A stretch of DNA of 24,000 nt from Verrucomicrobiota bacterium (GCA_031370675.1 JANMQT010000038.1:1-24000), one strand, 5' to 3'. Shown: positions 811 through 12,600, counted from the stretch's first letter. A program made the numbers and translations. Notes: generated by a model not told the origin, from the letters alone.

Positions 811-3189
811 ATGGCCGACTCGCCTACGCCCGGGCCCGTTCCATCGAAACCCGCGACGCGATCGCGCGAATCCGACGAGAGTTCCCGGATTCAGGCCTTG
901 CGCCGTGAGGGTCACGAATTGGGCCGCAATCTGGAAATCGCGACCCGGCAAATTCAGACCGAGCGCGGTCGGGTTGAATCGATGCGGCGCAGCCTTTCGT
1001 GGCGGCTCACACTCCCTTTTCGCGTCCTCCAGCGCGCCTGGTCCGGCCGTTCGACCGCGCCTCCGCCACCCGCGCCTGTCACCAGCCCGGCGGCGGCGCG
1101 CGCGGCGGAACCGGGCGAGGTCGAATTTCAGTGGCATCTCGATCAGCCCTCCCCGGATCAGATTCATGAGGGGCAAATTCGATTCAGGGGCTGGTGCCTG
1201 GACGCGGGCGGGCGACCCTTTTCCCGCCTGCGCATCCACGCGGGAGCTGATGCCGTGGAGTCGGGCGTCCATCTGCCGAGACCTGATGTCGTGATGTTGC
1301 TCGGGCTCGCGCCCGCCAGCTTGCGCTGCGGATTCGATCTCCGCGTGACGATTCCGCGGGGGAGCGCCGGCGTGACGATCGAAGCCCTCAATGAGCGGGA
1401 TCTCCGCTGGCGGACGATGGAGGTGCTTGAGGTTGCCGGAGCGGCGAGCCGCGGCGGCGGTGACGATGAGGCCGCGCCGTATCGCGCGTGGCTCGCGCAG
1501 CATGACCGATTCGACAACGTGGCGCGAGGCCGGCTCGTCGCCCGTTGCCAGGCGCTGGCGACTCCGCCGCGCATCTCGATCCTGATGCCGACGTGGCAGA
1601 CGGCCGAGCTGTGGCTGCGCGCCGCCATCGAGTCGGTGCGCAACCAGGCCTATGCCCACTGGCAGTTGTGCATCGCCGATGACGCCTCCACCGCGCCGCA
1701 CGTGCGCCGGATTCTCGAGGAATATTCGCGGCTGGATGCGCGCATCGTGCACGTGGTGCGGCCGGAGCGCGGCCACATTTCGGCGGCCACCAACCGCGCG
1801 CTCGAGCTCGCCGACGGTGACTGGATCACGTTTCTGGATCACGACGACGAGCTGCATCCCGCGGCGCTGGCCTGCCTCGCGCTCGAGATTGCCGCGCATC
1901 CGGAGGCCGAGTTGATTTATACGGACGAGGACAAACTGGATGAGGCCGGCCGCCGCTCGACACCGTATTTCAAGCCCGATTGGAATCCCGAGCTCATCAT
2001 CGGACAGAATTTTGTCTGCCACCTCGCGGCGTATCCGGCCGCGCGCCTGCGGGCGCTCGGCGGGCTGCGCGTCGGATTCGAGGGCTGCCAGGACTGGGAC
2101 CTCTTGCTGCGCGCGACCGCGGCGCGGGCCGACGCGCGCGTGCGCCACATCCCGCGCGTGCTCTACCACTGGCGCATGCTGCCGGGATCCACCGCTCGCG
2201 ACCATGGCGTGAAGTCATACGTGATCGCCGCAGGCGAGCGCACGTTGCGCGAGCATTTCACGCGCGCCGGCCTGCCCGCGACGCGGCTCGACGTAAATGC
2301 CTCCGGCCACTGGCGCGCGAGTTATCCCCTGCCCGAGCCGGCGCCACTGGTTTCGGTTCTCATCCCCACGAGAAATCAGCTCGAACACCTCCGGCGCTGC
2401 GTCGACTCCATCCGCGCGAAGACGGATTATCCGAACTACGAAATCGTTGTGGTCGACAATCAGTCCGACGATTCCGCGACACGCGAACAGCTGGCGCATT
2501 GGGAGCGCAGCGGGGGCGTGCGCGTGCTGCCGTACGATGCGCCGTTCAACTACGCGGCGCTGCACAATTTCGCCGTGCCGAAGTGCCGGGGTGAATTGAT
2601 CTGCCTGTTGAACAACGACACCGAGGTCATCTCGCCCCGCTGGTTGCGCGAGCTGGCCGGACACGCAATCCGGCCTTCCGTGGGCGCGGTCGGCGCCATG
2701 CTGCTCTACCCGGACGACACCATCCAGCACGCCGGGATCTTCGTCGGCATCGGCGGCGTGGCGGAGCATCCCTACCATCGGGAACCGCGTGACAGCGGCG
2801 GCCAGATGAGCCGGTTGCTGGTCGCGCAAAATCTTTCCGCGGTCACCGGCGCCTGCCTGATGATTCGCGCGTCACTCTATGCGGAGGCCGGCGGACTGGA
2901 CGAGACGAATCTCGCCATCGCCTACAACGACGTCGATTTCTGCCTGCGCCTCGTCGCGCTCGGCTATCGCAATGTCTGGACGCCCCTCGCCGTCTTGTAT
3001 CATCACGAATCGGTCTCGCGCGGCTACGAGGACACGCCGGAGAAAGTGGCGCGCTTTCGGCGCGAGTACGATTACATGCGCCAACGGTGGGCCGCCCGGC
3101 TGGATCACGATCCGGCGTACAATCCAAACCTGACGCTGCAGCACACCGACTTCGGCCTGGCTCGCGAACCCCGGGTCGACCCCTGGTGA
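811..3189 (+). CDS. Bifunctional family-2 glycosyltransferase (two GT2 catalytic domains) with an N-terminal coiled coil and a beta-rich spacer domain
   Basis: ATG at 811. N-terminal heptad-like helix (aa ~25-60), then SLSWRLTLPFRVL, a motif I recall after coiled coils in polysaccharide-cluster GT/MT proteins. A GW...RPDV spacer domain follows. GT2 domain 1 (aa ~255-455): ISILMPTWQ...CIADDAS...FLDHDDEL...QDWDLLLR. GT2 domain 2 (aa ~513-735): VSVLIPTRN...VVVDNQSDD...LLNNDTEV...GACLMIR...YNDVDFCLR...HHES. Confidence 0.9.
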   Translation: MADSPTPGPVPSKPATRSRESDESSRIQALRREGHELGRNLEIATRQIQTERGRVESMRRSLSWRLTLPFRVLQRAWSGRSTAPPPPAPVTSPAAARAAEPGEVEFQWHLDQPSPDQIHEGQIRFRGWCLDAGGRPFSRLRIHAGADAVESGVHLPRPDVVMLLGLAPASLRCGFDLRVTIPRGSAGVTIEALNERDLRWRTMEVLEVAGAASRGGGDDEAAPYRAWLAQHDRFDNVARGRLVARCQALATPPRISILMPTWQTAELWLRAAIESVRNQAYAHWQLCIADDASTAPHVRRILEEYSRLDARIVHVVRPERGHISAATNRALELADGDWITFLDHDDELHPAALACLALEIAAHPEAELIYTDEDKLDEAGRRSTPYFKPDWNPELIIGQNFVCHLAAYPAARLRALGGLRVGFEGCQDWDLLLRATAARADARVRHIPRVLYHWRMLPGSTARDHGVKSYVIAAGERTLREHFTRAGLPATRLDVNASGHWRASYPLPEPAPLVSVLIPTRNQLEHLRRCVDSIRAKTDYPNYEIVVVDNQSDDSATREQLAHWERSGGVRVLPYDAPFNYAALHNFAVPKCRGELICLLNNDTEVISPRWLRELAGHAIRPSVGAVGAMLLYPDDTIQHAGIFVGIGGVAEHPYHREPRDSGGQMSRLLVAQNLSAVTGACLMIRASLYAEAGGLDETNLAIAYNDVDFCLRLVALGYRNVWTPLAVLYHHESVSRGYEDTPEKVARFRREYDYMRQRWAARLDHDPAYNPNLTLQHTDFGLAREPRVDPW

Positions 3190-3196
3190 CCCCGCC

Positions 3197-3919
3197 ATGA
3201 AACATCGCGAAGCCTGCTACGCGCTGCTGGCCGGCGATGGGATCGACATCGGCGCCCTGCATGAACCCGCCCCGCTGCCGCCCGCCTGCCGCGTGCGCTA
3301 TGTCGATGCCCTCACCCGCGACGAGGCCATCGCGTGCTTCCCGGAAATTGATCATGCGCGGCTGGTGACGCCTGATTTCATCTGCAACCTCGATCGGGCT
3401 GCGCTGCCGTTTCCCGACGATTCGCTGGACTTTGTCGTGCTCAGCCATGTCATCGAGCACGTCGCCAATCCGGTCCGCGTCATCGGTGAAATCTTCCGGG
3501 TTCTGCGTCCAGCCGGCCGGGCGCTAATCGCGGCGCCGGACAAACGATTCACCTTCGACGACAGCCGCGCGCTCACGCCGATCACCATGCTGCTGGAAGA
3601 CTTCCTTGAGCACCGCACGGACGTGCCCGACGAGCGTTACCTTGATTTTCTGCACGGCGCCGGGGCGCATGTTTTTGACGAACCGCCCGAACGCCTGCCC
3701 GGTCACGTGGCCCGGGCGCGCGCGCGGCGTGAACATTGCAGCGTGTGGGACAGCGCGGCCTTCCGCGAATTCCTCGAGGCGGCGCTCCGGGCGACCCACA
3801 CGCAGGCGATCCCCGTACGCGAGCACCTCGGCGACGAAACCCAGCTGGAGTATTGCGGGGTCTGGGAGAAGCACCGGCCATCAATCTGGCGGCGACTCTT
3901 CAAGGGCCATTCCGCCTGA
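3197..3919 (+). CDS. Class I SAM-dependent methyltransferase (Methyltransf_11-like)
   Basis: ATG at 3197, 8 nt after the GT stop, suggesting an operon. Motifs: GDGIDIGA (motif I-like) and LDFVVLSHVIEHVANP...IFRVLRPAGRALIAAP, typical of the class I MTase fold. Confidence 0.8.
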   Translation: MKHREACYALLAGDGIDIGALHEPAPLPPACRVRYVDALTRDEAIACFPEIDHARLVTPDFICNLDRAALPFPDDSLDFVVLSHVIEHVANPVRVIGEIFRVLRPAGRALIAAPDKRFTFDDSRALTPITMLLEDFLEHRTDVPDERYLDFLHGAGAHVFDEPPERLPGHVARARARREHCSVWDSAAFREFLEAALRATHTQAIPVREHLGDETQLEYCGVWEKHRPSIWRRLFKGHSA

Positions 3920-3932
3920 GCAATCCGCCCCC

Positions 3933-3981
3933 CCTCGACCCTCCACCCTCGACCCTCGACGCTTCGTTTTCGACTTTCGAC
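3933..3981. repeat. Seven tandem heptanucleotides: CCTCGAC CCTCCAC CCTCGAC CCTCGAC GCTTCGT TTTCGAC TTTCGAC
   Basis: Read directly from the sequence. TCGA-type cores sit at 3935, 3942 (TCCA), 3949, 3956, 3964 (TCGT), 3970 and 3977. The array lies in the 90-nt spacer between the two methyltransferase genes and ends 28 nt before the ATG at 4010. Confidence 0.9.
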
Positions 3982-4009
3982 CCACGCAGATCTCAGCCAT
4001 CTTTCCGTC

Positions 4010-5065
4010 ATGCCTCCTGCCCTCGCAGCCAGAGCGCCCGGCGCGGTTGCGCACGCGTTCGACGAGTCAGATTTCGGCCATACCGAGCTCGCGCCGACCC
4101 ATCGCATCGATCTGCGCCCGTCGAACACGCCCGATGTCTTCTTCGACGCCGAGCCGGTTTCCGACTGGACCGCACTTTCGTGGGAAAAGCTCGGCCGTCC
4201 CTACCGCGTCGAGCGCTGGTCAAAGGAAAAGCAGGCGTGGGAGCGCGAGCACGGGCAGGAAATGCCGGTGAAGGAATGCTGGACGCATTTCAACCGCTCC
4301 TTTCAGAAATACTTCGATGCCGATCCCGTCGCTGCGCGCCGCGCATCGCTCGGCAAACTGGGTCGGGCGGCCGCCCGTTTCAACGCCGGTGACGTGCGTG
4401 ACGCACTCGAGGAGACCGTGCAATGGAGCGTTTGGAATCACATCCACAAGAAGGAGGACGCCGTCTGGGACCCGCGCGGAAAGCGCGCGTTGTTCGAGGG
4501 TCTCGACGTGAAGCGGCCGAATATTCTCTTCCTCGGCGCGGCCGACGGCTACGAGGCGATGCAAATCATGGCCCTGTATCCCGGAGGGCACGCCGTGCTG
4601 GTGGACTACGACGAATACTGCCGCGATCACCGCTTTGGCGCGTTCCCCGGCAGCTATCCCTTCATCGGCACCAACCCCGCCACCGGCGGCGCAAAGGTCT
4701 GGTATCGCGACGAGATGAACATCGACTTCGAGGTATGCGACATCCGCGATTTAAAATACGGCGCGGAGTTTGACGTCGTCGTCAGCATCGGCCTGGTCGA
4801 GCATTTCCCCGATGAATTCAAACCGCTGGCGTTCGAGATGCACCGGAAATTCCTCAAGCCGGGCGGGCGCGTCATCATCACGACGCCGCGGCTGCAGTTG
4901 AAGTCGAAGCTGTTCTACACGCTCTTTGCCGACTCGATGAATTTTGCGTACCGCGAGCTGATGGACATCACGCACCTCGGGCTCTACGCGTGGGAAAACG
5001 GTTTCGAGATCCTGCGCCACGGCCGCATCAAGGCGCACAACGGCCTCATTTGCCGGGCGCGATAG
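4010..5065 (+). CDS. SAM-dependent methyltransferase with a ~170-aa N-terminal extension of unknown function
   Basis: ATG at 4010. MTase core: NILFLGAADGYEAM (motif I), AVLVDYD, FDVVVSIGLVEHFPDE, FLKPGGRVIITTP. I recognise no family in the first ~170 aa. The start codon is therefore less certain than the reading frame. Confidence 0.75.
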   Translation: MPPALAARAPGAVAHAFDESDFGHTELAPTHRIDLRPSNTPDVFFDAEPVSDWTALSWEKLGRPYRVERWSKEKQAWEREHGQEMPVKECWTHFNRSFQKYFDADPVAARRASLGKLGRAAARFNAGDVRDALEETVQWSVWNHIHKKEDAVWDPRGKRALFEGLDVKRPNILFLGAADGYEAMQIMALYPGGHAVLVDYDEYCRDHRFGAFPGSYPFIGTNPATGGAKVWYRDEMNIDFEVCDIRDLKYGAEFDVVVSIGLVEHFPDEFKPLAFEMHRKFLKPGGRVIITTPRLQLKSKLFYTLFADSMNFAYRELMDITHLGLYAWENGFEILRHGRIKAHNGLICRAR

Positions 5066-6829: not shown

Positions 6830-8554
6830 TCAGGGGGCTACCGCGCGTTTCTGATAGAAGAGCGCCACGCGCGGGGCCTCACCTTTGCAGATCTCTTTGC
6901 GCAAGCGGATGACCGTGGCAGGGGAGGCCGTTACGGTCCGTCCCGGCGGGGCCATTTCGACGTTGCCCTCAAACGCCGTCAGTTCGTAGGCGGCTGGCAA
7001 CTGCACCTCCCAGCCAATCAAACTCGTGAAGAGTTCCGTGCGCGGCAGCATCAGCTCCAGCCGGCCCGCAACCGGTGCGAATTTTTCCGCGCGCGCCGAA
7101 TAGGAGAAAGCCACCCGGGTGAGCCTGTTTTCCGCAACCGCCGGCAACGTGAATTCGACCACGTCATTGCCCCGGTCAATCGGGCTCGCCTCCCGGCCAT
7201 TAATCGAACACTCGAGCAGTTCGCTCCCTCCTGGCAGCTCCACGCGCAGCGCCTGCGGTCGATCGTGACGAACCGTGAATTTCGCTTCGGCGAGAAGGCT
7301 TCCTTCTGCCACCACCCGCATCTCGAACTGCGCGTCGTCGATCCGGGCCTGCGAAGTTGCCACCACCGAAAGTCGCTTCACCTTGACCACGGCAGTGGTT
7401 TCGCCCGGCGCCGCGTGAATCGTCGCATAACCCAACCCGCCCAACATGCCCGTCAGGGACGGACCTGGTTCATCGAGACCGACGCTCCCTGCCGGATTCC
7501 CCGCCCCCGCGGTAATTTCCAGTCCCGGTCGAGCCGCAACAAAGAAAACCGAACGCTGGGCGACGCACCCGTTGACCATCGGCGCAGTGAGAATCCACTC
7601 ACCGTCTCGCGCGGTCAGCGGCATTTCATAGACCACCCTCACCTCGCGGGCAAAGCGTTCGAGACCGTTCCAACGAATCACCACCACGCGGTGCAGGCCA
7701 TCATCGGAGCGCGTGGTATCCCAGCGCTCAAGACTCTCGCCGTCCACTTCCCGCACGTTCGTCATGGCGGGCAGAAACAGGCGCATCTCCGTCGTGTCGC
7801 CATCGACCCCGTTCGCGAGAATGCGGGAGCGGCAGGCCAGACGGCCCTCCTCCGCGGCGACCACCGTTTGCACGTCTGCGTTCCACGAAGAAGCGACCGG
7901 TTTTTTCTTCGAGCGCCGTTCGCTGCCGACCACCGTGAACGCGAGGTCGGGCGCCGCGCCGAGTCGAAAGAGCGTTCCGGCCGCCCCGGGGCCGTTGAGT
8001 CGCACGCCGTCGGTCAGCTCCACCAGGGAGCCGGCCGGCACCCCGACAAAACTCGCCTCCGAAATCAGCGCCGGGGGAACGGTCAGACGCAGACCCGGCG
8101 CCGTTCCGGTGGCATTCGACAAGCGAACCGCGAAGCGGATCGTGACGCTGCGCTTACCGGTTCCAAACATCATCAGCGTATAGGAACCATCTCGAAGTGC
8201 GACGGCTGCCGCCTCCGGAGCAACACTTTCAATCCGCACGTCCGCCGGCAGGAGCGGCACCAGGGTCCAACCGTCTTCGAAGTTCGTCACCTCAAAGGTG
8301 GCCCGGCAGACCACCGAAGTTAGATCCGGCGAAAATTCGAAGGCATAGCGAGCCAGCGAAAGCGCGTGCGCCAGCGGTGGCGCGGGTTTGACCGGGGGCT
8401 TCACGTGCGCCGCATCCCACAGCGCGCGGAGTTCCGCGTAGGGAATCGTGACGGATGTAGCGACAACATCCGGCGGTTCGGCGAAGGCACCATCCACCGC
8501 GGAGCTGAGCGACGCGCAGCCGACTAGGAGACGAACCGGAAACGGGATGGACAT
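6830..8554 (-). CDS. Exported hypothetical protein, beta-rich, with three apparent internal modules. No family recognised.
   Basis: ATG at 8554. N-terminus MSIPFPVRLLVGCASLSSAVDGAFA is either a signal peptide cleaved after AFA or a lipoprotein signal with lipobox LVGC. Balanced amino-acid composition, unlike the Arg-rich antisense ORF at 6734-8323. Sits between the creC-like and creD-like genes with 71-nt and 49-nt spacers. Confidence 0.75.
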   Translation of the reverse strand: MSIPFPVRLLVGCASLSSAVDGAFAEPPDVVATSVTIPYAELRALWDAAHVKPPVKPAPPLAHALSLARYAFEFSPDLTSVVCRATFEVTNFEDGWTLVPLLPADVRIESVAPEAAAVALRDGSYTLMMFGTGKRSVTIRFAVRLSNATGTAPGLRLTVPPALISEASFVGVPAGSLVELTDGVRLNGPGAAGTLFRLGAAPDLAFTVVGSERRSKKKPVASSWNADVQTVVAAEEGRLACRSRILANGVDGDTTEMRLFLPAMTNVREVDGESLERWDTTRSDDGLHRVVVIRWNGLERFAREVRVVYEMPLTARDGEWILTAPMVNGCVAQRSVFFVAARPGLEITAGAGNPAGSVGLDEPGPSLTGMLGGLGYATIHAAPGETTAVVKVKRLSVVATSQARIDDAQFEMRVVAEGSLLAEAKFTVRHDRPQALRVELPGGSELLECSINGREASPIDRGNDVVEFTLPAVAENRLTRVAFSYSARAEKFAPVAGRLELMLPRTELFTSLIGWEVQLPAAYELTAFEGNVEMAPPGRTVTASPATVIRLRKEICKGEAPRVALFYQKRAVAP

Positions 8555-8577
8555 GGCCGCCAGAAAAGCCGGCCCGC

Positions 8578-8615
8578 GTGAAGCCTTGATGAACTTCGCG
8601 TGAAGTTTCGATGAA
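8578..8615 (-). promoter_or_regulatory. Candidate CreB-type response-regulator binding array: TTCAT-n6-TTCAC-n6-TTCAT-n6-TTCAC
   Basis: Minus strand 8615->8578 reads TTCATcgaaacTTCACgcgaagTTCATcaaggcTTCAC. That is four direct pentamers at exact 11-bp spacing. Each half differs by one base from the E. coli 'cre tag' TTCACnnnnnnTTCAC. It is also a 22-bp tandem duplication (16/22 identical). It ends 23 nt upstream of the ATG of the 574-aa gene. The pattern is certain; its function is inferred. Confidence 0.55.
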
Positions 8616-8625
8616 TTCCTGCGAT

Positions 8626-10104
8626 CTACGCGAGCGGCAGCCGGACCGTGAACGTCGATCCCGTACCCGGCTCACTCACGACTTCAATCGTTCCCCGTGC
8701 GGCGCGAAGTATCGATTTCACGAGGGCCAGACCCAGGCCGGTGCCACGCAATCCTGTCCGGGGATTCTCAGTGGTAAAAAATCGATCGAAAATCTTCGGC
8801 TGGATCGACGCTTCCATCCCTTTCCCCTCGTCGCGCATCGTGAGCACTGCGCTCCGCGTCGAGAGCTCGGCCTGGAGCGACAGTTCAACGGCCTTGCCCG
8901 GGGGAGTAAACTGAAACGCGTTGTCGGCGAGGTTTCCAACCACTTGGTCGAAATGTTCTCCAGACATCCGGCACCGCAGCGGTTTATCCCCCGTGGTCCA
9001 TGTGAACCGAATCCCAAGCCGTTCCGCGCGCACTTGCAAGTGGTCCTCCGCAAGTCGCCCGAGGTTTTCCCGCAGGTCGATCGGCGTCACGGTGGCGGGA
9101 GCCGGAGCGGTTTCAATCCGAGACAATTTGAGCAGGTCGTCGACGATCTGATTCAGGCGCGCCGCCTCGAGCTGGATGTTGGCGAGAAACTTCCCGCGCA
9201 CCGCTTCATCATTCACGGCGCCATCCTCCAGCAGTTCCGCGGAGCCGCGGATGGCCGCCAGCGGAGTCTTCAACTCGTGCGAGAGATTCGTCACCATTTC
9301 CTCGACGTAAGCCTTGCCCTCCAGCTTTTGGCGCATTTTCTCAACCGCTCGCGCGAGCGTGCCCAATTCGCTCCGGGTCCAGGTCTCCAACCGGACATCC
9401 GTTTCGCCCGCCGCGACCCGCTCCGCCCGCGTCGCGAGCCCCCCGACGATGCGCGTCAGGTAGGCTGAAAGCACGTAAGCGAGCAAGGTCGCGATCGTCA
9501 CTGCCGCCAGTCCCGGCAGCGCCAGTTCGCGCAAGGCCCGGATAATCGCCAGCCGGCTTCGGAGGGTCGGCTTCACAATCGTCACCGCGCCGACGATGCT
9601 TGCGCCGGTCCACACCGGGAGCGTGCTGAAGAGATTTACCCGGTTCGAATTCGGGTCGAGTTGCCACCGGCTCCCGTAACGACCCTGCAGGGCCTGCCGA
9701 ACTTCCAACAGCTGGCGGTCGTCACGCCCGCTTTGCCGGACTTGCTGCGTGTCGTAAAGCACCACGCCCTTCGCGTCATAGAAGATTAGACGAGTATCGG
9801 CGTCATCCTTCGTGAAGCCAAAGAGCCGCGCCTTGGTCGAGCGGCTGCTTTCGAAATCGGAAAACATCGCGGCAAAATTCTCCCGCAGTTTGGCCGGGTC
9901 GTTTCCGTTTTGCGCGGCAAGTCGCGCGTAGAGTTCGCCGACCACCGCCGCCGTATCGATCATGCCCTCCTCCGTGGCGCGAAGCTGGGTGGCCTCGAGG
10001 TTCAGGCGCACCTGCCACGCCAAATACACCACCGGTAGAAACAGCACCGCCAGGTGAAAGATAAACACCTTCCAGTGAATGCTGTGCAAACCGGGAAATC
10101 GCAT
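8626..10104 (-). CDS. creC: Two-component sensor histidine kinase, CreC-like
   Basis: ATG at 10104, 2 nt after the response-regulator stop. N-terminal TM, periplasmic domain, second TM and HAMP. H-box is SHELKTPLAAIRGSAELL. N/G boxes are DNAFQFT, DEGKGM and GTGLGLALV. Blocks match recalled E. coli CreC: ATEEGMIDTAAVVGEL vs ATEGTLIDTATLLAEL, LQGRYGSRW vs LRGQYGARS, and MRQKLEGKAYVEE vs MRVKLEGKNYIEQ. Confidence 0.85.
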   Translation of the reverse strand: MRFPGLHSIHWKVFIFHLAVLFLPVVYLAWQVRLNLEATQLRATEEGMIDTAAVVGELYARLAAQNGNDPAKLRENFAAMFSDFESSRSTKARLFGFTKDDADTRLIFYDAKGVVLYDTQQVRQSGRDDRQLLEVRQALQGRYGSRWQLDPNSNRVNLFSTLPVWTGASIVGAVTIVKPTLRSRLAIIRALRELALPGLAAVTIATLLAYVLSAYLTRIVGGLATRAERVAAGETDVRLETWTRSELGTLARAVEKMRQKLEGKAYVEEMVTNLSHELKTPLAAIRGSAELLEDGAVNDEAVRGKFLANIQLEAARLNQIVDDLLKLSRIETAPAPATVTPIDLRENLGRLAEDHLQVRAERLGIRFTWTTGDKPLRCRMSGEHFDQVVGNLADNAFQFTPPGKAVELSLQAELSTRSAVLTMRDEGKGMEASIQPKIFDRFFTTENPRTGLRGTGLGLALVKSILRAARGTIEVVSEPGTGSTFTVRLPLA

Positions 10105-10935: not shown

Positions 10936-12600
10936 ATGCCCACCAAGCTGGCCCGCTCGGGTCTCTCCATCGCCCTTTCGTTGCTTGTGCTGATCGACGC
11001 CGGCTGCTCGCGCCGCGCGACCGACGTCGAGATCGGCAATCGCGAGGGCATCCTGCATCTTGGCGGCGGCGGCGAACCGCGCGACCTGGACCCGACCACC
11101 AACATCGGCGCCGCCGAGAGTCGAATTCTCCAGGCCCTGTTTGAAGGCCTCGTGATCGTGTCGCCCGATGGAAAAGCGATCGTGCCGGCGGCGGCGGAGC
11201 GCTGGGAAATTTCGCCGGACGGACGCGTCTATACTTTTCACCTGCGGCCCGGCCTGAAGTGGAGCAACGGCGATCCGGTTACAGCCGATGACTTTCTCTA
11301 CGGTTTTCGGAGAGTGCTCGAGCCCGCGGTCGGCGCGGAGGCCGCGCAGCAGGCTTTCATCGTCAAGGGCGCGCGGGACTACGTCGAGGGCCGGAACAAG
11401 GACCCACAATCGATCGGTTTCCGCGTGGTGGACCCGCTTACCTTCGAGGTCACGCTGGATTATCCGGCGACCTATTTCCTCGGCCAGATCGGCTACTACC
11501 CGTTCTATCCGCTGCACCGGCCCACCCTCGAAAAATTCGACGGATATCTGCGCCGCAACTCAGGCTGGACACGGCCGGGCAACCTGGTCGGCAACGGCGC
11601 CTTCCGGCTGAAAGCGTGGCGCCAGAATGACGCCGTCGCGGTGGAAAAGAGTCCCACCTACTGGGACGCGGAGCGCGTGCGCCTGCGCGGGGTGGTCTTC
11701 CACTCGATCGACAATCCCGACGCGGAGGAACTGGCGTTTCGCGGCGGTCGTCTCCATGTCACCTACGGTCTCGCCGCCACCAAGGTGGAGGCTTATCGCA
11801 CGGCGAAGTCGCCCTTCCTGCACGTCGAGCCCGAACTCCGGAGCCAGTGGATCGCGTTTAATGTCACCGAGCCACCCTTCACGGACGCGCGCGTCCGGCG
11901 CGCGCTCGCGCTCGCGGTCGATCAAGAGGCTTTGGCGCGCGATGTCCTGCGCGGCCAGCAACCCGCCGGAAGCATCGTGGTTCCCGGCGCTGGCGGATAC
12001 ACGGGCCACAGCCTGGTACGGCGCGATCCGGAACGAGCGCGCGCGTTGCTCGCCGAGGCCGGATTCCCCGCTGGCGCTGGCTTTCCAAGGGTCAGCTTGA
12101 ATTATACCGCGCGCTCGGGCTGGAAGGAAGCCTGCGAGGCGCTGCAGTACATGTGGCAAAAGGAACTCGGCATCCGGGTTGAGCTCGCGCAACTCGAATA
12201 CAAGGTCTGGCTCGACGCGCTGCGCGGCCGCAAACACCAGTTCAGCTACGACGGCTGGGGATCGTTTGTGGATGATGCGGTGGAGTGGATTGGGCTTTAC
12301 GCGTCCCAATCGCCGAACAACGACAGCGGCTGGGGCAACGCGGCCTACGATGAACACGTGAAAGCAGCTGAGCGAGCTGTCACCCAGGCGGATCGCTTCG
12401 ATCATTTTCGTGCCGCGCAGGCGATACTGCTCGAGGAAATGCCCGTCATTCCGCTCTATCACCAGAACCGCAACTACCTGATGCAAACTTCGGTGCGCGG
12501 CTGGCAGGACAACCTGCTCGACACCCACCCGCTCAAGGAGGTCTGGCTCGACGCCGCCGGCGGCGCGGTCGCCCGACCCGCCACCATCGCGCAACCTTGA
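10936..12600 (+). CDS. ABC-transporter substrate-binding protein, family 5 (peptide/nickel, OppA/DppA-like), probable lipoprotein
   Basis: ATG at 10936. N-terminus ...LSLLVLIDAGCSRR has a lipoprotein-like Cys, but position -3 is atypical. Family-5 SBP blocks: AESRILQALFEGLV, PAAAERWEISPDGRVYTFHLRPGLKWSNGDPVTADDF, LVGNGAFRLKAW, IPLYHQNRNYL. No permease or ATPase genes are adjacent. Confidence 0.85.
   Translation: MPTKLARSGLSIALSLLVLIDAGCSRRATDVEIGNREGILHLGGGGEPRDLDPTTNIGAAESRILQALFEGLVIVSPDGKAIVPAAAERWEISPDGRVYTFHLRPGLKWSNGDPVTADDFLYGFRRVLEPAVGAEAAQQAFIVKGARDYVEGRNKDPQSIGFRVVDPLTFEVTLDYPATYFLGQIGYYPFYPLHRPTLEKFDGYLRRNSGWTRPGNLVGNGAFRLKAWRQNDAVAVEKSPTYWDAERVRLRGVVFHSIDNPDAEELAFRGGRLHVTYGLAATKVEAYRTAKSPFLHVEPELRSQWIAFNVTEPPFTDARVRRALALAVDQEALARDVLRGQQPAGSIVVPGAGGYTGHSLVRRDPERARALLAEAGFPAGAGFPRVSLNYTARSGWKEACEALQYMWQKELGIRVELAQLEYKVWLDALRGRKHQFSYDGWGSFVDDAVEWIGLYASQSPNNDSGWGNAAYDEHVKAAERAVTQADRFDHFRAAQAILLEEMPVIPLYHQNRNYLMQTSVRGWQDNLLDTHPLKEVWLDAAGGAVARPATIAQP

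Follow-up and report, generated by a model that had tools for sequence, protein, structure and literature searches.

A tandem array of four TTCAY pentamers, repeated every 11 bp, lies directly upstream of a gene for an exported 574-aa protein in the window (the whole 24,000-nt stretch of Verrucomicrobiota bacterium DNA analyzed here, GCA_031370675.1 JANMQT010000038.1:1-24000). The array is a genuine and conserved feature that goes with the 574-aa gene and the creD-like gene after it, and it is enriched upstream of creD-type genes. It probably consists of tandem sites for the phosphorylated form of a CreB-like regulator encoded in the same cluster, which would recruit RNA polymerase for near-leaderless transcription of the 574-aa/creD pair. 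From sequence comparison we infer the identity of the binding protein, activation as the effect of binding, and the position of the transcription start.

OmpR/PhoB-family regulators bind 11-bp-period direct repeats head-to-tail, one monomer per repeat, and in promoters controlled by PhoB the pho box (repeat CTGTCAT) replaces the -35 element and lies 10 bp upstream of the -10 hexamer. We propose that the four TTCAY pentamers are likewise head-to-tail half-sites for the neighboring CreB-like regulator, that the CreC-like kinase would phosphorylate this regulator and so load tandem dimers onto the array, and that the array would stand in for the -35 element of a promoter whose weak hexamer TTTTCT (8567-8562) is located 10 bp downstream. 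RNA polymerase would then be recruited in the manner of PhoB at pho boxes, and transcription would start on the ATG at 8554 or no more than 1-3 nt away, yielding a leaderless or near-leaderless mRNA for the 574-aa exported protein and a divergent CreD. The 574-aa and creD-like genes would thus be what the system controls locally, in the role that creD has for E. coli CreBC. The features concerned are listed in Table 1.

Table 1. Positions in the window of the array, its half-sites, the predicted promoter element, and the genes of the cre-like cluster
Feature	Position	Strand	Remarks
CreB-like OmpR/PhoB-family response regulator gene, 236 aa	10107..10817	(-)	Response_reg and Trans_reg_C domains; candidate array-binding protein
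CreC-like sensor histidine kinase gene, 492 aa	8626..10104	(-)	HAMP, HisKA, and HATPase_c domains
Four-pentamer array	8615..8578	(-)	Reads TTCATcgaaacTTCACgcgaagTTCATcaaggcTTCAC
Half-site 1, TTCAT	8611..8615	(-)	Conserved aa just before
Half-site 2, TTCAC	8600..8604	(-)	TTCAC in orthologues, with TTCAT in L010 as the exception
Half-site 3, TTCAT	8589..8593	(-)	Followed by conserved CA(A)G; TTCATCA near-invariant
Half-site 4, TTCAC	8578..8582	(-)	Nearest the predicted promoter
Putative -10-like hexamer, TTTTCT	8562..8567	(-)	10 bp past the last half-site; last T conserved
ATG of the 574-aa gene	8552..8554	(-)	Predicted transcription start at the ATG or 1 nt before
574-aa exported beta-sandwich protein gene	6830..8554	(-)	Unnamed family; opens the predicted operon
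Divergent creD-family inner-membrane protein gene, 403 aa	5569..6780	(-)	Follows the 574-aa gene at 49 nt in the predicted operon

The regulator, kinase, 574-aa, and creD-like genes are all on the minus strand, and the array is housed in the 71-nt spacer between the 492-aa and 574-aa ORFs, its first pentamer being 10 nt downstream of the stop codon of the kinase ORF (TAG, 8628-8626) and its last pentamer 23 nt from the ATG of the 574-aa ORF. Reading out the minus strand returned the same coordinates, sequence, and 23-nt gap as an earlier note on this DNA. The pattern TTCAYN6TTCAY is matched at three places in the 24-kb window, which are the three overlapping dyads of the array, against 0.07 expected from dinucleotide-preserving shuffles (0/100 shuffles gave three); when one mismatch is allowed, four further dyads are found scattered in the 24-kb window, none in array form. 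The array is not a product of chance. Both dyads are TTCAT-N6-TTCAC, each with a single mismatch to the cre tag TTCAC-N6-TTCAC, in agreement with the statement in the earlier note that each half is one base off the E. coli CreB element, and the first dyad is an exact TTCAC-N6-TTCAC in most orthologues. With the 11-bp spacing, all four pentamers fall on one face of the DNA helix. That much of the former reading (four pentamers on one helical face, fitting two dimers) stands, but a fixed pair of dimers does not, as the number of half-sites is four to five here and apparently three at E. coli creD; because of this variation we take the array to be a tandem oligomer site that varies in length. A weak terminator-like hairpin (8571-8585, minus strand; GGCTTCACGCGGGCC then GGCTTTTCTG) shares positions with half-site 4 and with the putative -10 hexamer; the hairpin count is within shuffle level (0.7 expected), and the hairpin is present in the closest relatives only, being missing in L006-L010.

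A word-based protein search with the 574-aa protein yielded nine relatives on the contigs L001-L011, whose sources point to Verrucomicrobiota. The CreB- and CreC-like genes are adjacent with a creD-family gene nearby, and the order regulator-kinase-574aa-CreD-like is kept in eight loci, all of which (8/8) have four pentamers in register at 22-23 nt from the ATG, with 6-nt spacers that vary. Alignment of orthologous spacers had been proposed in the earlier note as a check on pentamer conservation, and over 12 loci, with 27-86% identity among their 574-aa proteins, the pentamers are indeed conserved (1.85 bits per column) while the spacers drift (0.82 bits); the 12 nt of upstream flank and the 22 nt downstream have 0.45 and 0.85 bits per column, respectively, and the 12-locus consensus is aaTTCACnnAnnnTTCACnnnnnnTTCATCAnGnnTTCAY.

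A second gene order, 574aa-CreD-like-regulator-kinase, is found in L010 and the metagenome loci L134-L139, where the gene upstream is unrelated and the 574-aa protein is 27-34% identical to that of the window. The array is still directly before the 574-aa gene in these loci, with its last slot 22-23 nt from the ATG. It comprises four or five in-phase slots, of which the next-to-last is often CGCAT with the following CAAG/CAAC kept; the slot equivalent to half-site 3 in the distant lineage is CGCATCAAG, and its CATCAAG/CATCAAC core is kept in L135-L139. The array keeps its place before the 574-aa gene despite the swapped order; it therefore belongs to the start of that gene and does not simply result from the way creC ends. 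The regulator and kinase of L010 both score above the curated cut-offs (CreB: 312 vs 273; CreC: 569 vs 356).

In the window itself, the best NCBIfam model of the regulator is CreB (244 bits, against 204 for BaeR and 185 for PhoB), and the protein is 43% identical to E. coli K-12 CreB, which bears out the earlier view of a CreB-like neighbor, with a score just under the curated cut-off of 273. Similarly, the best NCBIfam model of the kinase is CreC (316 bits, cut-off 356), with positions 3-473 of 477 aligned. Both proteins therefore fall short of the equivalog cut-offs for CreB and CreC (NF008296 and NF008312), although these are the best matches for both and are full-length. The recognition helix of the regulator reads DRAIDAHIKTLRRKL in the window, ERTVDAHIKSLRAKL in L010, and DRTVDTHIKTLRAKL in E. 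coli CreB, the window helix being identical to that of E. coli CreB at 12/15 residues; DNA specificity appears to be conserved between the CreB types of Proteobacteria and Verrucomicrobiota. There is no solved CreB structure, and BaeR is the closest solved relative. No TTCAY array, which would be a sign of autoregulation, is present upstream of creB in the window, L010, or L134-L137, so the system of the window lineage is not obviously autoregulated through the TTCAY motif. In the lineage with the order 574aa-CreD-CreB-CreC, feedback could occur by read-through over the gap of 70-170 nt.

The cre/blr tag TTCACN6TTCAC upstream of creD is reported to be critical for binding of activated CreB/BlrA (PMC4689548), and creD serves as the standard measure of CreBC activity in E. 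coli, Aeromonas, and P. aeruginosa (PMC4689548; PMC7873081). The closest known system is E. coli CreBC with its cre tag upstream of creD (also Aeromonas BlrAB with the blr tag and blrD, and P. aeruginosa CreBC-CreD). Shared with the window are the genes for an OmpR/PhoB-type regulator and its kinase immediately upstream, the 11-bp-period direct repeats of TTCAC type at the junction of creC and the next gene, a CreD-family membrane protein as the local target (predicted here), and near-identical recognition helices. In E. coli K-12 (L012), the creC stop codon carries TTCACcgtcacTTCAC, which precedes creD (the sequence at the creC end is cgaCTTCACcgtcaCTTCACaTAGcTTCAAattc..., 61 nt ahead of the creD ATG), and a cre tag on the creC stop is in a position equivalent to that of the window array. 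The array is also promoter-proximal in the way of a cre tag, being 23 nt upstream of the 574-aa/creD-family operon, and likewise in L115, a verrucomicrobial locus from the species scan described below. There are, however, several differences. The canonical E. coli site has two half-sites (plus the apparent third, TTCAA), whereas there are four here and five in the sister lineage; two of the four half-sites in the window are TTCAT; an extra 574-aa gene intervenes between the site and creD; the distance from site to ATG is 61 nt in E. coli (from the second TTCAC) but 22-23 nt in the verrucomicrobial loci; and the E. coli system is proteobacterial whereas the window is from Verrucomicrobiota, with a regulator and kinase under the curated cut-offs.

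The likeness to PhoB and its pho box lies in the 10-bp spacing to a hexamer ending in T and in multi-box arrays in both. In contrast, the pho-box repeat is CTGTCAT, the recognition helix of E. coli PhoB (DRTVDVHIRRLRKAL) differs from that of the window at the HIRRLR vs HIKTLR positions, the window regulator scores 185 bits as PhoB vs 244 as CreB, and the predicted target here is no phosphate-uptake gene.

To characterize the promoter geometry, we aligned 25 verrucomicrobial sites anchored on the last pentamer. Position +16 is T in 24/25 of these sites and position +12 is A in 14/25, whereas +16 is T in 47/108 (44%) of the other sites among the matches listed. The hexamer at +11..+16 thus has the form nAnnnT, with the TTTTCT of the window clade lacking the A at position 2, and is separated from the ATG by 6-7 nt. 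The first base of the start codon falls on +23 or +24 in both 574-aa clades, L115, L051, and L066, and on +26 or +27 in Akkermansiaceae. Taking the T at +16 as promoter position -7 would put the transcription start at about +23, which in the window is the start-codon A or the base ahead of it. This geometry predicts that the mRNA of the 574-aa gene is leaderless or near-leaderless and activator-dependent. A scan of 8300-8900 for consensus sigma-70 promoters returned no promoter, with one weak hairpin, and no conserved sequence upstream of the array is fit for an independent promoter (flank 0.45 bits, 12 loci). The earlier note had left three readings of the short gap, namely a very short leader, an internal promoter overlapping the site, or repression by occlusion; our results favor an overlapping promoter with a very short or absent leader, and occlusion is less favored.

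A layout of 10 bp and then a TAnnnT-like hexamer can also be read at three sites outside the phylum. At the E. coli creC/creD junction (L012 4100-4180), a third half-site-like TTCAA occurs at 10-bp spacing and is followed, exactly 10 bp on (attcttccca), by CATAGT, which suggests that the E. coli creD promoter shares the geometry of repeats, 10 bp, and hexamer. In L075 the 10 bp are tgcgccccta and the hexamer is TAAGGT, and in L099 they are attaaaaatg and TATCCT. The leaders at these three sites are about 30-60 nt long, with a clear Shine-Dalgarno sequence in L075.

Most of the confidently called genes of the window have no Shine-Dalgarno sequence within 20 nt of the start codon, and translation initiation in this organism appears, from these start regions, to be largely Shine-Dalgarno-independent. 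We therefore rejected the missing Shine-Dalgarno sequence of the 574-aa gene as evidence for a leaderless mRNA. In Akkermansia muciniphila, Cappable-seq placed about 10% of transcription starts at annotated start codons (PMC4782308). As this species is of the same phylum and has transcription starts at start codons, a start at the ATG is plausible here, but the leaderless promoters of A. muciniphila are not linked to a response-regulator site in PMC4782308.

The convergent orientation of the next downstream gene indicates that the putative operon ends at the creD-like gene. Neither Pfam nor NCBIfam has a family for the 574-aa protein or for eight distant or fused relatives. Its N-terminus (MSIPFPVRLLVGCASLSSAVDGAFA/EPP) looks like a signal peptide, as it does in all homologues, and a C-terminal membrane helix is absent. 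The AlphaFold2 model (nine sequences, mean pLDDT 73) is all-beta, a chain of sandwich domains. Foldseek matches of this model in the PDB were the luminal domain of OST1/ribophorin I, integrin legs, and N-terminal domains of M1 peptidases, with TM-scores of 0.2-0.3; such low-scoring matches to generic multi-beta-sandwich proteins make the fold class uninformative on function. The family had seemed very rare in the word-based search (10 matches), but this was overturned by an exhaustive profile search of a 50%-identity library, which returned 3183 cluster representatives at E <= 1e-3 and 331 at E <= 1e-30. A few family members are about 1,400-1,500 aa long (P0011-P0159 set). P0010, 683 aa long and apparently joining the kinase to the 574-aa N-terminus in L011 5546-10538 (the same contig as L095), was rejected as a true fusion; frameshifts break the regulator, kinase, and 574-aa genes in this long-read contig, and the fusion is an assembly artefact.

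Wherever the flank is visible, the gene next after the 574-aa gene is CreD-like, and the 574-aa protein may be a functional partner of CreD. The identification of that gene as creD-like, already made in the earlier note, holds up. The 403-aa protein passes the gathering threshold of Pfam CreD (PF06123; 28.3 bits vs 23), with only its C-terminal part matching, and hhalign aligned the 403-aa family with the CreD proteins of E. coli, L115, and L075 over 384 columns, end to end, at 97.7% probability, so that the 403-aa protein is a divergent but full-length member of the CreD family. The protein fails the NCBIfam CreD equivalog cut-off (29 vs 275), which makes it part of a divergent CreD subfamily.

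We searched one genome per species (185,579 species) for four TTCAY at N6 spacing, which gave at least 120 loci, and assigned downstream genes by tblastn with the window proteins and E. coli CreBCD. A creD-type gene lies downstream of the array, directly or after a 574-aa homologue, in 5/120 of the matches listed. As creD-family genes number no more than one per few thousand genes, well under one such match would be expected among the 120 listed. A 574-aa homologue and then a CreD-like gene follow the array in L095 (Verrucomicrobiae, the window's own family) and in L065 (Akkermansiaceae, with the 574-aa homologue at 27% identity). In L089 (Verrucomicrobia), with a CreB-like regulator nearby, the CreD-like gene comes directly after the site, so that it can follow an array without an intervening 574-aa gene. 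L115 (Verrucomicrobia) has the ATG of a CreD (491 bits in Pfam) 22 nt after the array, together with a CreB of 328 bits and a CreC of 573 bits, all three above the curated cut-offs, and in L075 (Desulfatitalea) five pentamers are followed by a CreD 34% identical to E. coli CreD. In addition, the cultured Oceaniferula spumae NT6N (L082, NZ_AP026866.1) has an array and then a 574-aa-like N-terminus that runs off the end of the block.

Verrucomicrobiota account for 13/120 of the matches listed, two of which are plain microsatellites (L032 and L097). Most of the other verrucomicrobial arrays listed are 22-27 nt before the ATG of varied genes (L015, L044, L051, L066, and L114), encoding a DUF817 membrane protein, a class I methyltransferase, a DUF5412-like lipoprotein, and small membrane proteins; with their shared short-leader geometry, these arrays look like a wider regulon. 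Five matches (L032, L056, L069, L070, and L097) are pure 11-nt TTCAC microsatellites (ttcacacacag repeats; ttcacagccaa x7) and represent false positives. In an uncultured Planctomycetia contig (L099 1154-5078), genes for a PhoB-like regulator and a kinase are followed by 4xTTCAY and then a gene for a Na/Pi cotransporter-PhoU fusion, and the regulator scores best as PhoB (279 bits). This layout implies that TTCAY repeats can act as a pho-box-like element in another phylum; judged by such sequences, the TTCAY-N6 motif is not exclusive to CreB. Four-pentamer arrays also occur before genes with thioredoxin-reductase-like N-termini (…IIGTGPGGLTAAIYLARA…) in Cohnella sp. (L077 5515-5552) and Paenibacillus doosanensis (L029 7643-7680), and these Paenibacillaceae arrays may be the site of another OmpR-family regulator.

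The same regulator and site could act in the opposite sense, the bound array blocking RNA polymerase or read-through from creBC, a reading that we regard as unlikely. The array does end only 23 nt from the ATG, and CreBC of Stenotrophomonas maltophilia negatively regulates creD, lowering creD promoter activity (PMC4689548), so that activation is not to be assumed here. The stretch between creC and the array has no terminator (one weak, non-conserved hairpin), which makes a roadblock to read-through conceivable; by the same token, read-through from the creBC promoter may also express both downstream genes. Against repression, however, there is no conserved promoter upstream of or within the array to occlude (flank 0.45 bits), L010 and L134-L139 have no upstream co-directional transcript to block, and the fixed 10 bp to the -10-like hexamer is the geometry of an activator, as at pho boxes.

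That another OmpR/PhoB-family regulator encoded elsewhere, e.g., a PhoB orthologue, binds the array strikes us as improbable, even though adjacency does not prove the identity of the binder, the planctomycete L099 has TTCAY repeats before a Na/Pi cotransporter-PhoU gene beside a PhoB-like regulator, and verrucomicrobial arrays also precede unrelated genes (DUF817, methyltransferase, lipoprotein). The array and a CreBC-like pair are linked wherever flanks are visible, in two gene orders; the motif is the one established by experiment as the CreB site of E. coli (PMC4689548); and the recognition helix is nearer to CreB than to PhoB. Least probable by far is an array without function, a chance 11-bp tandem repeat or part of a creC terminator. 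The scan did match TTCAC 11-mer microsatellites (L032, L097, L069, L056, and L070), and the weak hairpin at 8585..8571 overlaps half-site 4, but the spacers differ from one another and among species while the pentamers are kept, the hairpin is within shuffle level (0.7 expected) and missing in L006-L010, and the 22-23 nt to the ATG are fixed across proteins only 32% identical. This conservation pattern effectively refutes both a functionless repeat and a creC terminator, and we retain the reading of the array as tandem sites through which the CreB-like regulator would activate the 574-aa and creD-like genes.

Each prediction of the earlier note that is open to a computational check was borne out. 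The unit of CreB, cre tag, and creD is already known; what is new here is its occurrence in Verrucomicrobia, the doubled tag, the extra conserved candidate target gene, and a geometry predictive of leaderless transcription. An experimentally characterized CreB-cre tag-creD unit is thereby carried from Proteobacteria into Verrucomicrobiota, a phylum with almost no characterized transcription factors, for which the array offers a concrete candidate regulatory site. CreD, an envelope-integrity protein, is linked to a conserved exported candidate partner, and the fixed spacing predicts activator-dependent leaderless mRNAs. A broader and more tentative reading, which we consider possible but somewhat short of an even bet, is that CreB-type regulators across Verrucomicrobiota drive leaderless transcripts (array, 10 bp, nAnnnT, 6-9 nt, and ATG) and that their regulon includes the unnamed exported beta-sandwich family (~3,000 representatives), possibly the missing partner of CreD.

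The neighbors of the cre-like cluster are conserved across L001-L008 (window 811-5065 and 10936-12600, both on the plus strand). One flank holds a gene for a family-5 solute-binding protein (OppA-like), divergent from the regulator gene, and the opposite flank comprises a SnoaL-like gene, two genes for methyltransferases, and a gene for a double GT2 glycosyltransferase.
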